From: a virus
Lineage: Duplodnaviria > Heunggongvirae > Uroviricota > Caudoviricetes
DNA length: 4,894 nucleotides
Strand: one strand, 5' to 3'
Virus record (IMG/VR): IMGVR_UViG_2713896791_000019
Below, one piece after another: positions 131 to 4,779 of the stretch. The first letter of the stretch is position 1. Every line of letters begins with the position of its first letter. The translations under genes were made by a program, and so were the position numbers. The notes below the pieces were generated by a model. The model did not search any database. It saw only the letters and a program-made list of their open reading frames with translations, and had not been told where the DNA came from.

Positions 131-322
131 TTAAAGACCTGCCGGGATTTCGTTATTATCCTGGTGAATAACTTTATCGACCGGGTAACAGTTACCGGGA
201 ATTTTCTGTTCGGTTGCTGCAGTTACACACTCCTGCATTGTCCTGTGAACACTGACTGCAATATCAACTGGCTCTCCGGAAACAAGAAAAACTGTCAGAA
301 CAAGTGCAAATGCTGTATTCAT
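131..322 (-). CDS. small hypothetical protein, 63 aa, with hydrophobic signal-peptide/TM-like N-terminus (ORF extends upstream to 376)
   Basis: ATG at 322..320 overlaps the upstream ORF stop as ATGA (minus strand 322..319), with an AAGGA-like purine tract 8 nt upstream. Product begins MNTAFALVLTVFLVSG. Start could instead be 331 or 376. No homolog recognised. Confidence 0.4.
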   Translation of the reverse strand: MNTAFALVLTVFLVSGEPVDIAVSVHRTMQECVTAATEQKIPGNCYPVDKVIHQDNNEIPAGL

Positions 323-507
323 TGCCAGCATCCTTTTTGTATCGGACGTAAACGGGCCAGCATTGAAAGAATGCATATTTTATTTAATAGCTCCCGTTCG
401 TGTTTTCTCTTGTTAATGGCATCTTCAGTAAATACAGGGTTACTGATAGTGACACCAATTTCAAAACAACCTTCAGACGTATTAACGTTTGGTAATAACG
501 TTTCCAT
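319..507 (-). CDS. small hypothetical protein, 62 aa from ATG at 507; N-terminus uncertain because the ORF runs into the N gap
   Basis: Open frame 576..319 on minus strand. Internal ATG at 507..505 is preceded by GAGGA (519..515). Product METLLPNVNTSEGCFEIGVTISNPVFTEDAINKRKHERELLNKICILSMLARLRPIQKGCWQ. No homolog recognised. Confidence 0.4.
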   Translation of the reverse strand: METLLPNVNTSEGCFEIGVTISNPVFTEDAINKRKHERELLNKICILSMLARLRPIQKGCWQ

Positions 508-572: not shown

Positions 573-914
573 CCAAACGTCACCAGAAAATTGATAACAG
601 AGGGCGTTGCAGCGGGGTTGTCACTTAAGCGTATTGTCAACCTGACAACCCGGTGTCCTCAACGGGGAAGGAATAACCCCGCCATACTTACCGCCGCGCC
701 ATTTCGCGGAGTGCCACAACCGGAAGCGCACGTTCGAAGAAATCTAACGACAAGCCTTCTAAGGGAAAGAGCTTCGCCGTACGCTTTCGCGTTATGCCCT
801 GACTTTTCAGGGAAATATCCTTTCAGTAAACTGTCAGTACCGGATTCTTATCCGTGTCCGGCGCACGACCACACGTGACAGCGTGTTGGTCTCCATTTTT
901 AACCCAGAACCTCA
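573..914. other. GC-rich non-coding stretch dense in inverted repeats (possible structured RNA or regulatory leader)
   Basis: No convincing ORF on either strand; the only ORF (489..878 +) is Pro/Arg-rich and junk-like. Inverted repeats: GGGTTGTCA 615-623 with TGACAACCC 643-651; TTGTCA 634-639 with TGACAA 643-648; CGGGG 663-667 with CCCCG 677-681; CCGCG 694-698 with CGCGG 705-709; CCCTGA 797-802 with TCAGGG 807-812; GACCACACG 867-875 with CGTGTTGGTC 882-891. Confidence 0.35.
867..900 (+). terminator. candidate intrinsic-terminator-like hairpin with downstream T-run
   Basis: 9-bp GC-rich stem with one bulged U (867-875 / 882-891), 6-nt loop, then TCCA and TTTTT (896-900). The U-tract is 4 nt from the stem, so it is weak by the canonical rule. 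Confidence 0.25.
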
Positions 915-926
915 ATGGAGGATAAA

Positions 927-1136
927 ATGCCAAACAAAAAAAGAAATCCGCTTATTGAAAAACAGATTGAATGCCTGGTAAATCAACTCAGGCAATCAGG
1001 GTTATTAAAAACTCATTCAGAGTTGAGGCTCACAGAATCAGCATTCGACGATAAATTAAATAATGTCCTTTATAATGGCATTATTGATTTTAATCGTTCT
1101 GTTGGTCGCCGCGGCCCTGCTGGTGTTTCCTTATAA
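927..1136 (+). CDS. small hypothetical protein, 69 aa (ORF opens at 915)
   Basis: GGAGG at 917-921, 5-nt spacer, ATG at 927. AT-rich coding sequence. Stop TAA 1134-1136 abuts the stop of the convergent gene. No homolog recognised. Confidence 0.45.
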   Translation: MPNKKRNPLIEKQIECLVNQLRQSGLLKTHSELRLTESAFDDKLNNVLYNGIIDFNRSVGRRGPAGVSL

Positions 1137-1787
1137 TTACCAGTCAATCCAGAGTGGACCGTGTTCAGCGTAAATATAACTGTACACATCCAGATTATAT
1201 TTGTGGTCTGTTAAGAACAGGCCGCAAATACATGCCGAAGCTTCCAGTGCAGCGGCTCTGTTACTGAATAACCATGTAGCAACATTCCAGCGTTTTTCTG
1301 CATCCCAGTCTTTATCAAGGCCTGATACCATGAAGAAACCGTTAGTGTTGCCATCAAATAATTCTGTTTCCAAATTTTTAAGCAATGCCTGATGGACTCT
1401 TGCCAGGTATTCCACCGGAATTTCGCCACGAATTCTGATGAGATTGTCATAAACAAACATGTTCCCCGCATATGGCGATTTTTCTTTCTTGTTTTTTAAA
1501 CCAGCATCATGAGCAAACTGATCAATTTCTTCTTCCGTTGGTTTCGTATTGATGTTTTGCGCTGTCGTTTCTGCAATTTTATTTGCCACACTCTCTGAGT
1601 CGTGTTTATTTATAGACGCACAGAAATACAATCCGGTAAACGCATCGCGCACATTACGAGCCATATTATCAGTGTCTTTTTTCGTTACCGATTCCAATTC
1701 AAGTTCGTTCAGACGATGACGAAGTGTGTGTGCTGCAATCTCCTGGATTGAAGGAGGTAAATCTTTAAATTCCATCGTCAACCTCAT
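1137..1787 (-). CDS. hypothetical protein, 216 aa, no recognisable domain; candidate prophage accessory gene
   Basis: Long clean ORF with protein-like composition. ATG at 1787..1785 overlaps the upstream ORF stop (TGATG). Alternative start at 1775 has GAGG 6 nt upstream. No P-loop, HEPN or TM motifs seen by eye. Confidence 0.65.
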   Translation of the reverse strand: MRLTMEFKDLPPSIQEIAAHTLRHRLNELELESVTKKDTDNMARNVRDAFTGLYFCASINKHDSESVANKIAETTAQNINTKPTEEEIDQFAHDAGLKNKKEKSPYAGNMFVYDNLIRIRGEIPVEYLARVHQALLKNLETELFDGNTNGFFMVSGLDKDWDAEKRWNVATWLFSNRAAALEASACICGLFLTDHKYNLDVYSYIYAEHGPLWIDW

Positions 1788-1939
1788 CAGTCGGAGTTTC
1801 TTGCTAACCAGCGATGCGCGCCAGCTTCGGTTTTAAACGTTTTACTTTTGGTATACGTCATCGCGGTAAACGTACCGTCCTGGTTGGGAAACACGCCACA
1901 TACCAGAGATTCGCTGTTGCCAAGATCGATAGTATCCAT
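1787..1939 (-). CDS. small hypothetical protein, at least 50 aa; frame stays open across the N gap to an ATG at 2032
   Basis: ATG at 1939..1937 preceded by GAGG (1948..1945, 5-nt spacer). Stop TGA 1789..1787 overlaps the start of the 216-aa gene. A longer version from 2032 would require the 50-N gap to preserve frame. Confidence 0.4.
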   Translation of the reverse strand: MDTIDLGNSESLVCGVFPNQDGTFTAMTYTKSKTFKTEAGAHRWLARNSD

Positions 1940-1951
1940 GCTGACCTCATT

Positions 1952-2001
1952 NNNNNNNNNNNNNNNNNNNNNNNNNNNNNNNNNNNNNNNNNNNNNNNNN
2001 N
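1952..2001. other. run of 50 unresolved bases (N); gap or masked segment
   Basis: Literal n characters at 1952-2001. Confidence 0.97.
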
Positions 2002-2130
2002 CATAGTTATTAAAGTTGAACCCTGCCGTCATGTTCTTACGCCTCGGGCTGGCTACTTAACCCCTGACCACTGCCTGGTAACTCGAAGTATTGCCCTGCA
2101 TTCTGTGGGGTGGGGAGAGGGAATGAATGA

Positions 2131-2159
2131 AGTTTAGAAAAATGAACTTTTCAGGTCAA
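2131..2159 (-). promoter_or_regulatory. candidate leftward sigma70 promoter (PL-like)
   Basis: On minus strand: -35 TTGACC (2159..2154), 17-bp spacer, -10 TAAACT (2136..2131). Lies directly next to the operator-like palindrome. Confidence 0.3.
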
Positions 2160-2243: not shown

Positions 2244-2882
2244 TTAAATATCTTGTTGAATTTTAAAGCATACGCCCAATATGCAAGATAGATCATCCAG
2301 CATAATTGAAGGGTAGCGAGGATTCGTGGGGACTAAAAGAATATCCGGCCCTTCTATCTCCAGTTTACGAATGACAGGTGTTGTGGTCCCTTTGGGTAAG
2401 GCAAGGACAATATTTCCTGGTTGTACGGTTCGATTGGGATCAACAAAAACTGTTGAACCATTTGGGATGGAAACTCCCCCACCAGATGTTGACATACTGT
2501 CACTCTCTAGAACAACTGCAAAGGTATTGGCCGGGATTTCTCCGACAAGCTGCACACAAGAGGTTATTGAGGAATTTTTCATATAATCACTCCAGCTTGC
2601 TGCCTGCTGAAGTGATAGTAGCGGAACCGTTTTTATCGGCGGTAAAGATAGATCAAGCGAATCACCTGTATTTAACTCTCCTCCATTAAGAAGCCAATTT
2701 TCGTTTACTTTCAATATTTTTGCCAGTGAACTTATGTAACGCGAGGACGGCGCTCCTCCACCGTTTATCCATTGACTTACGGAGCCTTTTGATGCGCCAG
2801 TGGCATTGACAAGGTCTTTGCCTTTCAGGTTTAGCGCATGCATACGTTGGGTTATGCGTTCAGATATTGTTTGCTTGCTCAT
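2244..2882 (-). CDS. cI: CI-like prophage repressor (N-terminal XRE-type HTH, C-terminal S24 LexA-like autopeptidase)
   Basis: 212 aa. LAKILKV is identical to lambda CI. C-terminal motifs align with lambda CI: SDSM (Ser129) to GNSM, VFVDPNRTVQPGNIV to LILVDPEQAVEPGDFC, VIRKL (Lys173) to FKKL, and NPRYPSIM to NPQYPMIP. Divergent from a Cro-like gene. Confidence 0.93.
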   Translation of the reverse strand: MSKQTISERITQRMHALNLKGKDLVNATGASKGSVSQWINGGGAPSSRYISSLAKILKVNENWLLNGGELNTGDSLDLSLPPIKTVPLLSLQQAASWSDYMKNSSITSCVQLVGEIPANTFAVVLESDSMSTSGGGVSIPNGSTVFVDPNRTVQPGNIVLALPKGTTTPVIRKLEIEGPDILLVPTNPRYPSIMLDDLSCILGVCFKIQQDI

Positions 2883-3696: not shown

Positions 3697-4779
3697 ATGG
3701 CTAACGCCTGGCTCAGATTATGGCATGACATGCCAAATGACCCTAAGTGGCGAACAATTGCCAGGGTGTCAGGGCAGCCAATTGCAACAGTGATGGCAGT
3801 GTATATCCACCTCCTGGTGAGCGCGTCACGAAATGTCACGCGAGGTCACATTGATGTCACGACAGAAGATTTGGCAAGTGCGCTCGACGTGACAGAAGAG
3901 GTAATTGATTCAATTTTGCAGACGATGCAGGGGCGGGTACTTGATGGTGATTTAATCACTGGATGGGAAAAACGCCAGGTGCTTAAAGAGGACAACGGCA
4001 ATATTTCGCAAACCGCAAAATCTCCTGCAGAGCGCAAGAGGGCGCAGCGAGAGAGGGAAAGAAAGCGGGAACAAAATGGCGATTGTCACGGCGCGTCACG
4101 AAATGTCACGCACATGTCACGACGAGTCACGACAGATAAAGATACAGATAAAGATACAGATAAAGATACAGATCAAGAAGATCAAAACACTATGGTCCAT
4201 GGCGTAAAAAACGCCACGAACCAGGCAGGGGATGTTCAGACCGTCAATCCTGGTCAGCCAGCAGGCACGACACCGGAAGCCGATTCAGCGTATGCGCTGA
4301 AAGCCGATTCGGGCGCTGTGCAGCAGGTGATGACCGCAGGGTCGGAGCAATCACACCAACTGCAGCAGCCTGAAGCCGATTCCGCCATTCAGCGGGAAGC
4401 CGATCGGGTAGTCCCGGAAAGCACCGGGCAGTCTGTGGGACGAGTGGATTATCCGGATGTGTTCGAACAGGTCTGGCGGGAATACCCGTTGCGTGCTGGG
4501 GCAAACCCGAAGAAATCCGCTTTCAGTGCCTGGAAGGCCAGATTGCGCGAGGGGGTGCCACCAGAGACCATGCTGGATGGTGTGAGGCGTTACGCGAGAT
4601 ACCTGGCGGCGACCGGGAAAGCGGGAACGGAATTTGTTCAGCGAGCGACGACGTTTTTTGGGCCGGACCGGAATTTTGAAAACCCCTGGTTGCTCCCGGT
4701 AAGCGGCACGAACAACCAGCGTTGTGTGAATCATATTTCTGAACCGGATACCGAAATTCCGCCGGGATTCAGGGGGTGA
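3697..4779 (+). CDS. phage replication initiator / replisome organizer (functional analogue of lambda O), 360 aa
   Basis: AAGAGG at 3686-3691, then ATG at 3697 (the ORF opens at GTG 3691). N-terminus ANAWLRLWHDMPNDPKWRTIA fits the recalled replisome-organizer N-terminal pattern (W-x-R/K-L, DPK). It sits between the regulators and a helicase-loader gene and contains iteron-like repeats. Confidence 0.85.
   Translation: MANAWLRLWHDMPNDPKWRTIARVSGQPIATVMAVYIHLLVSASRNVTRGHIDVTTEDLASALDVTEEVIDSILQTMQGRVLDGDLITGWEKRQVLKEDNGNISQTAKSPAERKRAQRERERKREQNGDCHGASRNVTHMSRRVTTDKDTDKDTDKDTDQEDQNTMVHGVKNATNQAGDVQTVNPGQPAGTTPEADSAYALKADSGAVQQVMTAGSEQSHQLQQPEADSAIQREADRVVPESTGQSVGRVDYPDVFEQVWREYPLRAGANPKKSAFSAWKARLREGVPPETMLDGVRRYARYLAATGKAGTEFVQRATTFFGPDRNFENPWLLPVSGTNNQRCVNHISEPDTEIPPGFRG
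3825..3861. repeat. iteron-like array 1: four GTCACG/GTCACA repeats at 10-11 bp spacing
   Basis: GTCACG at 3825, 3835 and 3856, GTCACA at 3845. An inverted copy CGTGAC lies at 3888-3893. GACAGAAGA is repeated at 3861-3869 and 3891-3899. Confidence 0.6.
4085..4131. repeat. iteron-like array 2: five GTCACG repeats at 10-11 bp spacing
   Basis: GTCACG at 4085, 4095, 4105, 4116 and 4126. The 21-bp block GCGCGTCACGAAATGTCACGC at 4091-4111 is identical to 3821-3841. Confidence 0.7.
4132..4173. repeat. 12-bp tandem repeat ACAGATAAAGAT, 3.5 copies, A-rich
   Basis: Exact copies at 4132-4143, 4144-4155 and 4156-4167, with a partial copy to 4173. In frame they encode TDKDTDKDTDKD. Confidence 0.85.

Follow-up and report, generated by a model that had tools for sequence, protein, structure and literature searches.

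We analysed a window of 4,894 nucleotides (nt) from a virus of the Caudoviricetes (IMG/VR record IMGVR_UViG_2713896791_000019), in which two open reading frames (ORFs) occupy positions 1137–2032, directly downstream of a gene for a CI-like repressor and on the same strand. The original prediction had taken these ORFs as a two-gene unit and as candidates for an exclusion module like rexAB or BstA, with an early-left function under repressor control as the fallback. It is the fallback that is borne out, since a promoter, a pair of palindromes and the gene order make it very likely that the ORFs are the first two genes of a CI-repressed leftward early operon of the PL or dicBp type in a Qin-like prophage. 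The first gene is, by family membership, ydfA (DUF1391). The second encodes a protein of 212 amino acids (aa), here called X, whose partner, judged from the loci compared, is not YdfA but the product of a small convergent gene, here called Y, so that the two-gene unit had been drawn wrongly. Comparison of alleles strongly supports the view that the C-terminal two-thirds of X, together with Y, form one allele of an exchangeable cassette, which would lie between ydfA plus the first X codons on one side and the leader of the small RNA (sRNA) DicF on the other. YdfA and the dicBF operon have been described before; X and Y are orphan proteins, both uncharacterised.

The assignment to an early operon draws on the following features.

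2131–2159, minus strand: PL- or dicBp-like promoter (TTGACC-17-TAAACT), found by a consensus scan in the 210-bp spacer between cI and ydfA.
2159–2178, unstranded: candidate leftward operator OL, a perfect 20-bp palindrome (ATGTTTT-N6-AAAACAT) that abuts the −35 element.
2881–2900, unstranded: candidate rightward operator OR, where the palindrome occurs again, overlapping the start codon of cI.
1787–1939, minus strand: ydfA homolog (DUF1391, 50 aa), the putative first gene of the leftward early operon (Pfam PF07151, 1.9e-28; PGAP 'DUF1391 family protein').
573–926, minus strand: DicF leader, about 300 nt, 84% identical to the ydfC–dicF gap of Escherichia coli K-12.

With up to two mismatches allowed, the palindrome occurs at exactly two sites in the window, one on either side of cI, whereas 0.04 would be expected by chance; this placement is the signature of OL and OR, and we treat the two sites as candidate operators. 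Since a promoter-like site and a candidate operator separate cI from ydfA, the ORFs would lie behind a switch of the OL/PL type and not in the position of rexAB. The dicA–ydfA spacer of K-12 contains a promoter of the same shape, TTGACC...TAATCT (TTGACC and TAAnCT in both). Read leftwards, the gene order is repressor, ydfA, cargo, leader, DicF, dicB, a DUF1482 gene, a RecE-like exonuclease gene, a DUF4224 gene and an integrase gene. This is the layout of a dicBF operon, as judged from the order in the reference locus (L001), which is 100% identical to the window, from the K-12 map (dicA, dicBp, ydfA, ydfB, ydfC, leader, dicF, dicB, ydfD, ydfE, intQ) and from Pfam matches to a divergent P22_Cro and to DUF1482. 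The likeness to Qin thus comprises the order of the genes and the way they are oriented with respect to repressor and cro-like gene, a YdfA that is 90% identical to that of K-12, the leader, and DicF, dicB and the DUF1482 gene that follow. There are two differences: the K-12 slot is filled by ydfB and ydfC with no convergent ORF, whereas here it contains X and the convergent Y, and the repressor is a 212-aa protein of the CI type with an S24 peptidase domain, in contrast to the 135-aa DicA.

Two runs of N in the window, 523–572 and 1952–2001, are masks whose length is not preserved, and they stand for approximately 201 nt and for 38 nt of the reference, respectively. The first mask covers the body of DicF and about 150 nt of the DicF–dicB spacer, and only the first 17 nt of DicF (589–573, minus strand) are visible in the window. 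An Rfam search of the window returned nothing relevant because of this mask; in the unmasked reference, DicF scores 75 bits and, together with its conserved leader, lies downstream of the cargo as in a dicBF operon. The second mask is situated directly upstream of the ydfA start codon and hides the last part of a conserved ydfA 5′ region that is kept in K-12. Published work on Qin describes dicBp as the analogue of PL, repressed by DicA. One polycistronic transcript starts upstream of ydfA and reaches dicF, and RNase III and RNase E release DicF from it. The operon product DicB inhibits cell division and is reported to exclude some phages and thereby to protect K-12 from them.

The product of the small ORF belongs to DUF1391 with a score of 98.3 bits (cut-off, 27.3 bits) over model positions 1–48 of 48. 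The statement that neither product has a recognisable domain therefore holds for X but not for the small protein. Of the two starts suggested for this gene, ATG-1939 is supported by a GAGG 5 nt upstream, by the Pfam model, which spans residues 2–49, and by the PGAP and K-12 annotations, in which YdfA has 50–51 aa. The alternative is a longer frame of 81 codons (2032–1787, minus strand) to which the ATG at 1939 is internal; it gains no independent support. In the window this frame crosses mask 1952–2001; in the reference the extension to 2032 is in frame. Against PADLOC, YdfA gives only a chance-level match to AbiEi (E = 0.015). It is a fixed gene of the operon and occurs without X in K-12. A 'ydfA' named in the paper on IbfA proved to be an unrelated plasmid gene, and that lead was dropped.

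The convergent pair is made up as follows.

1137–1775, minus strand: X, a 212-aa acidic orphan (phrog_2151, 'Ybl81'), with an alternative upstream ATG at 1787.
927–1136, plus strand: Y (phrog_4274), a basic protein of 69 aa that has a conserved RRGPAGVxL tail; its gene converges on X and abuts it.

The large ORF, like the small one, is present as originally described: it lies on the cI strand directly downstream of cI and has 216 codons (1787–1137). X itself most likely starts at 1775. This conserved ATG (MEFKDLP, 212 aa) is preceded by a GAGG 6 nt upstream and is the start used by PGAP; the match to the PHROG profile starts at residue 5, and a number of homologs lack any in-frame ATG further upstream. 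With this start, the gap between ydfA and X is 11 nt and there is no TGATG overlap. The overlap can be read in the sequence, but the translational coupling that had been proposed on its account falls away, since the spacing between ydfA and X varies among relatives (about 150 nt in some) and the overlap is thus not a conserved coupling device.

X has an isoelectric point (pI) of 5.2 and no predicted signal peptide or membrane segment (maximal 19-residue hydropathy of 1.16). It has no match in Pfam, NCBIfam or PADLOC (0 PADLOC families), and PHROGs gave an unnamed family only; the result for Y in the same four libraries is likewise an unnamed PHROG. Fold searches with X returned no informative structural match, and literature searches found nothing on Ybl81, the WP accessions or the PHROG identifiers. 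X shows no similarity to YdfB or YdfC. The ratio of nonsynonymous to synonymous substitution (dN/dS) against the nearer homologs is 0.21–0.35 for X and 0.19–0.35 for X and Y together, with changes mainly at third codon positions, indicating purifying selection.

Relatives of X come from a narrow range of hosts. A word-indexed search of 5.8 billion proteins yielded 153 relatives, and those with a source name are from Escherichia or Salmonella. Exhaustive phmmer over 1.84 billion representatives gave only 35 matches, and this set did not grow when a profile of the C-terminal domain was searched. Neither search revealed relatives outside Escherichia and Salmonella prophages, and the sole annotated domain among the matches is a helix-turn-helix (HTH) inserted in a distant homolog, P0135. 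No relative of X was found in the GTDB species-representative genomes, and no full-length X and no Y in 50,697 phage records. The DNA of X and Y is nevertheless present, intact and often in more than one copy per genome, in 568 of 5,426 complete E. coli genomes, and carriers of the pair include O157, O103, O111, O121 and O145 pathogens.

X is predicted to consist of an N-terminal helical module (residues ∼1–90), a linker and a C-terminal alpha/beta domain (residues ∼100–212, about 115 aa). The two parts have separate distributions. The first 50–85 residues are found again in many short proteins whose C-termini are unrelated, and the C-terminal domain is common, at 27–28% identity, to a second subfamily of 217–286 aa. 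To this second subfamily belongs P0135, in which an XRE-type HTH (Pfam HTH_3, 8e-6) is inserted between the two conserved parts. In phage PA2 (gp25; L102, 5001–5444) and in 73 other records of Shiga toxin (Stx) phages, the X module (residues 1–86, 42% identity) heads a hypothetical protein of about 147 aa. Its gene is part of the early-left operon in these functional Stx-converting phages, after kil-gam-recT-exo-ssb-DUF2303, and no convergent partner is annotated beside it.

Y is tied to X by position. Its stop codon ends one base before that of X, and in nearly all of approximately 75 IMG/VR loci with downstream sequence a convergent Y is found within 6 nt of the end of X. The repressors adjoining the pair in these loci range from 100% identical to unrelated. 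Recurrence beside unrelated repressors, which had been proposed as a check, is thus positive, and it arises because the whole early-left module is common to prophages with different immunity regions. In Salmonella loci with Cox-like or HTH_35 genes upstream instead of ydfA, the pair is kept, with a 3′ overlap of 0, 11 or 53 nt and with a Y that is 42–77% identical and retains the RRGPAGVxL tail. The pair persists in prophages with a different upstream gene where identity has fallen to 27–28% for X and 42–52% for Y. When the search is started from Y homologs, an X-like gene faces Y in 3 of 3 contexts examined. In each of the contexts examined, the X-like gene has a small gene on the other strand after it, and the stops of the two abut or overlap. 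Such linkage across unrelated contexts is what is seen for toxins and their antidotes, although the arrangement is not that of type II toxin–antitoxin systems, which are co-directional autoregulated bicistrons; X and Y are convergent, and their 3′ ends abut or overlap by 0–53 nt. The proteins have complementary charges (pI of 5.2 for X and of 9.7 for Y). Y is predicted to form a helical hairpin with a disordered, conserved tail (pLDDT 83); it has no informative structural neighbour, and a sequence search of the PDB was empty. We consider it probable that X and Y are a functional pair.

The Salmonella prophages with the distant X–Y pair (L003, 8063–9576; L007, 7582–7870) also contain tandem units of isrK and C4 antisense RNA beside genes of the Ash and 'Derepression' families. 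These units look like a P1- or P4-like RNA immunity module that belongs to the same early operon, further downstream.

To survey what occupies this slot, loci were collected with a 28-nt string from the leader, and the genes adjoining the string were then classified. This gave 99 unique segments with a gene bearing the N-terminal module, and across these alleles C-terminal types and types of convergent small gene correspond nearly one to one.

C-terminal type of X as in this window, with convergent gene Y: 53 unique segments.
The same type, with a convergent 172-aa gene: 3 unique segments.
The same type, with a frameshifted Y: 7 unique segments.
Other C-terminal types, with a type-specific gene of 66 aa, 92 aa, 68 aa or 63 aa or a zinc-ribbon gene of 65–84 aa: 1–7 segments per type.

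The product of the alternative 172-aa gene is predicted to combine a coiled coil with a zinc ribbon, and one locus (L082) has an extra convergent gene of 162 aa between Y and the leader. DNA homology to the other alleles extends through the leader to ∼935–942, a few codons into Y, and returns at ∼1570–1758, in the 5′ part of X, from where it continues through ydfA. These boundaries delimit the exchanged unit, which comprises the body of Y and the larger, C-terminal portion of X. The unit is the most AT-rich part, with X at 41% GC and Y at 37%, both lower than their flanks; the earlier observation that the interval is more AT-rich than the replication module holds as well (42.6% GC for 1137–2032 versus 54.1% for the replication gene). 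Although the suspected exclusion function fared poorly, the broader idea of variable cargo is thus upheld in the form of this cassette. In the searchable literature, we did not find a description of a convergent, co-exchanged pair with a known gene on one side and a known sRNA leader on the other.

The strand opposite the DicF leader probably serves a second purpose, by providing the small partner genes with their 5′ region. Within 804–926, the plus strand of the leader contains a putative antisense promoter, TTTTCA-17-TAAACT, with the −10-like hexamer TAAACT at 827–832, and a conserved hairpin follows approximately 8 nt after the hexamer (840–861 in this window). Divergent Salmonella leaders have a −10-like TGaTATAGG at the same distance from the hairpin. 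In the 60-nt 5′ untranslated region (UTR) of Y, the Shine–Dalgarno sequence GGAGG (917–921) can pair with an upstream CTCC motif, and two versions of the pairing are found, CTCCAT/ATGGAG and CTCCT/AGGAG. The UTR gives a better fold than its shuffled versions do (z = −2.6); in the structure of minimum energy, the stem is a shorter CCUC/GAGG. The arrangement of −10-like hexamer, hairpin and 5′ UTR precedes the small convergent gene in every allele, and K-12 keeps the antisense 5′ elements of the leader without a convergent ORF. These elements may be the reason why the leader is so strongly conserved. A search for antisense start sites near ydfC gave nothing useful. Since no terminator is predicted between X and Y, the PL transcript and the putative antisense transcript would be complementary over hundreds of bases.

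The explanation that we prefer combines the early operon and the X–Y cassette with a mechanism, and taken as a whole it stands about evenly in the balance. The mechanism on its own is put forward tentatively, as a possibility that we regard with some doubt: X would be an early effector and Y an antidote made in the lysogen from the antisense strand, with mutual silencing of the two genes and neutralisation of X by Y. In the lysogen, CI bound to the palindromic operators would keep PL off, and Y could then be expressed through the weak promoter and the structured 5′ UTR that lie antisense to the DicF leader. Once CI is lost, the PL transcript would yield YdfA, X, DicF and DicB, followed by the recombination and integration genes; PL transcription would collide head-on with that of Y, and the complementary mRNAs would silence each other. 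Basic Y would most likely bind and neutralise acidic X, and in this way it may shield the lysogen from leaky PL expression or from the X of related phages. X itself would act as an early effector on the host or on a rival phage.

Two groups of known systems resemble parts of this scheme. In type I toxin–antitoxin systems of prophages, such as txpA/RatA and bsrG/SR4 of Bacillus subtilis, and in par of pAD1, the two transcripts are convergent and overlap at their 3′ ends. X and Y share with them the convergent units, the abutting or overlapping 3′ ends and the lack of a terminator in between, which predicts mutual antisense control and sensitivity to RNase III. The difference is that X and Y are both predicted to be soluble, conserved proteins and not a membrane peptide and an RNA. 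With CdiA-CT/CdiI and Rhs-CT/RhsI, the cassette shares a constant N-terminal part, an exchangeable C-terminal part and a small type-specific neighbour, moved as a block. This is the pattern of polymorphic effectors and their immunity proteins, although linkage alone could yield the same correlation. Unlike those systems, X lacks a domain for secretion or delivery as well as any recognisable toxin fold (domain searches detected neither a toxin nor a delivery domain, and fold searches were uninformative), its partner is convergent, and both proteins are predicted to be cytoplasmic products of a prophage early operon.

Several observations weigh against the effector and antidote scheme or against parts of it. 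No homology backs the mechanism, and AlphaFold models X with only moderate quality (pLDDT 66). With 8 of 12 consensus matches, the putative antisense promoter is weak and falls below the threshold of the scan, and published work on K-12, in which only the sense strand was examined, reports no additional promoter in the region. Only a weak hairpin without a T tract is found 3′ of cI, and in the absence of a strong terminator there may be read-through from cI into ydfA and X. An A7 run (936–942) spans codons 4–6 of Y, and 7 of 60 unique IMG/VR alleles have A6 instead, so that Y is frameshifted while X is intact. This argues weakly against X being lethal without Y, unless the A6 runs are homopolymer sequencing errors; the A6/A7 difference could equally reflect phase variation or slippage. 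In three alleles (L088, 6799–7557; L074; L084), the different convergent gene of about 172 aa replaces Y. Finally, the correspondence between types can be explained by plain linkage inside a mosaic block.

The last three of these points also speak for the strongest alternative, which has to be taken seriously but is, in our judgement, rather unlikely. According to it, X and Y are independent accessory genes in a shared mosaic block with no relation between the two proteins, X being an ordinary early-left protein of the ral, sieB or ea type and Y a separate 'moron' on the opposite strand. The N-module proteins of functional Stx phages, which lie in the early-left operon without Y, fit this well, and tight linkage alone would give a correlation of type to type. 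The likeness to lambda ral and sieB includes the early-left position and the character of non-essential, variable, AT-rich cargo. Lambda ral and sieB are, however, co-directional with PL, whereas the cargo here is a convergent pair, and there is no homology between them. More telling, the pair survives down to 28% identity for X and 42–52% for Y in different backbones, always convergent and with abutting or overlapping 3′ ends; no Y is seen without an X-like gene; and the boundaries of exchange lie inside the 5′ ends of X and Y, so that the bodies of the two genes always move together.

A role in the lysis–lysogeny decision is a further alternative, which we consider quite improbable. X would then be a regulator that binds DNA, a repressor or an antirepressor, and Y a modulator or the product of an X-controlled promoter, loosely comparable to CII. 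The XRE-type HTH of P0135 is in line with this, as are the Salmonella prophages with the order int–repressor–Cox, in which Y is oriented towards the repressor and int. In a PDB sequence search, the N-terminal domain of X also matched Noc/ParB marginally, at the HTH region (E = 0.025), a match that we rejected because the turn glycine is missing from the alignment. X itself has no HTH and is acidic. The Y transcript in this window would be antisense to cI and hence unable to establish cI expression, and a CII-like gene of the YdaT family is already present on the right arm.

The reading with which the interval was first presented, that ydfA and the 216-codon ORF are expressed with cI in the lysogen and exclude superinfecting phages or abort their infection in the manner of rexAB or BstA, appears very unlikely. 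It is true that both ORFs lie directly downstream of cI on its strand, with no strong terminator in between, and DicB, from an operon of the same type, reportedly protects K-12 from some phages. The likeness to lambda rexA–rexB consists of two genes on the cI strand adjoining cI. In lambda, rexAB are situated between cI and OL/PL, and the lysogen transcribes them together with cI. Here, in contrast, the promoter-like site and the operator-like palindrome separate cI from ydfA, the layout is that of the DicA-repressed dicBF operon, and the ORFs occupy the place of lambda N and its followers. There is no similarity to Rex in sequence and no membrane segment. BstA of the BTP1-like prophages is likewise a prophage gene beside the repressor, but its product is one large protein, expressed in the lysogen in its own right, whereas X and YdfA are part of an early operon and match neither BstA nor any PADLOC or Pfam defence model. 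In addition, ydfA is fixed and found without X in K-12, and the conserved partner of X is Y.

It is extremely unlikely that the ORFs are left over from a cryptic prophage in decay and have no current function: the integrase is frameshifted in the reference strain and no deposited phage genome has a full-length X or Y, but dN/dS is 0.2–0.35 for both genes and intact copies are found in the 568 E. coli genomes mentioned above.

The window as a whole (4.9 kb) represents the immunity and early region of a lambdoid prophage from Shiga-toxigenic E. coli. Outside the masked part, positions 1000–2250 are 100% identical to a prophage adjoining tRNA-Ser/mtfA in strain 2011C-4251, and the same stretch is 99–100% identical to strains of O103:H2, O45:H2, O121 and O145. 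The remaining genes of the minus strand are the following.

2244–2882, minus strand: CI-like repressor, 212 aa, with HTH_3 and Peptidase_S24 domains (Pfam and profile matches).
319–507, minus strand: dicB homolog (ORF translation; PGAP 'cell division inhibition protein DicB').
131–322, minus strand: ydfD-like DUF1482 gene (Pfam PF07358, 7.8e-25; PGAP annotation).

The plus strand of the window carries a P22-Cro-like gene, the CII-like gene of the YdaT family and a replication initiator gene. For the repressor, RefSeq annotates only a 112-aa 'LexA family protein' in the reference (L001, 13233–13571); the 212-aa ORF with HTH and S24 domains is intact there and identical. With its frameshifted integrase, that copy of the prophage is probably defective. 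Within the replication initiator gene, the region at ∼3820–4170 contains many iteron-like GTCACG repeats and a threefold tandem repeat of GATAAAGATACA, which encodes DKDT repeats. The replication origin probably sits within this O-like gene, at ∼3820–4170.

The genes between the dicBF promoter and DicF have so far been treated as anonymous small ORFs. The alleles compared here point to this stretch as a hot spot at which convergent gene pairs are exchanged as units, and about 10% of complete E. coli genomes carry the X–Y pair, an unusual architecture that is widespread in pathogenic E. coli. If the effector and antidote reading is true, the pair would represent a layout that is new among phage conflict systems, and it would supply a reason for the conservation of the leader. 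If that reading is false, the ORFs would be ordinary early-left cargo and not a defence of the rexAB kind. A generalisation that is somewhat speculative, and that we hold to be unlikely as it stands, is that the slot between ydfA and the DicF leader in Qin-like prophages and the slot after Cox in some Salmonella prophages both hold polymorphic convergent pairs. Each pair would consist of an early protein, with the shared N-module and an exchangeable C-terminal effector, and a cognate small protein expressed from an antisense transcript that starts in an sRNA leader. Such pairs would amount to a new kind of phage-encoded effector/antidote system, in which lytic versus lysogenic transcription of opposite strands sets which partner is made. 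A system of this kind may be used in competition between related prophages, in superinfection immunity or as a safety lock on leaky early expression.

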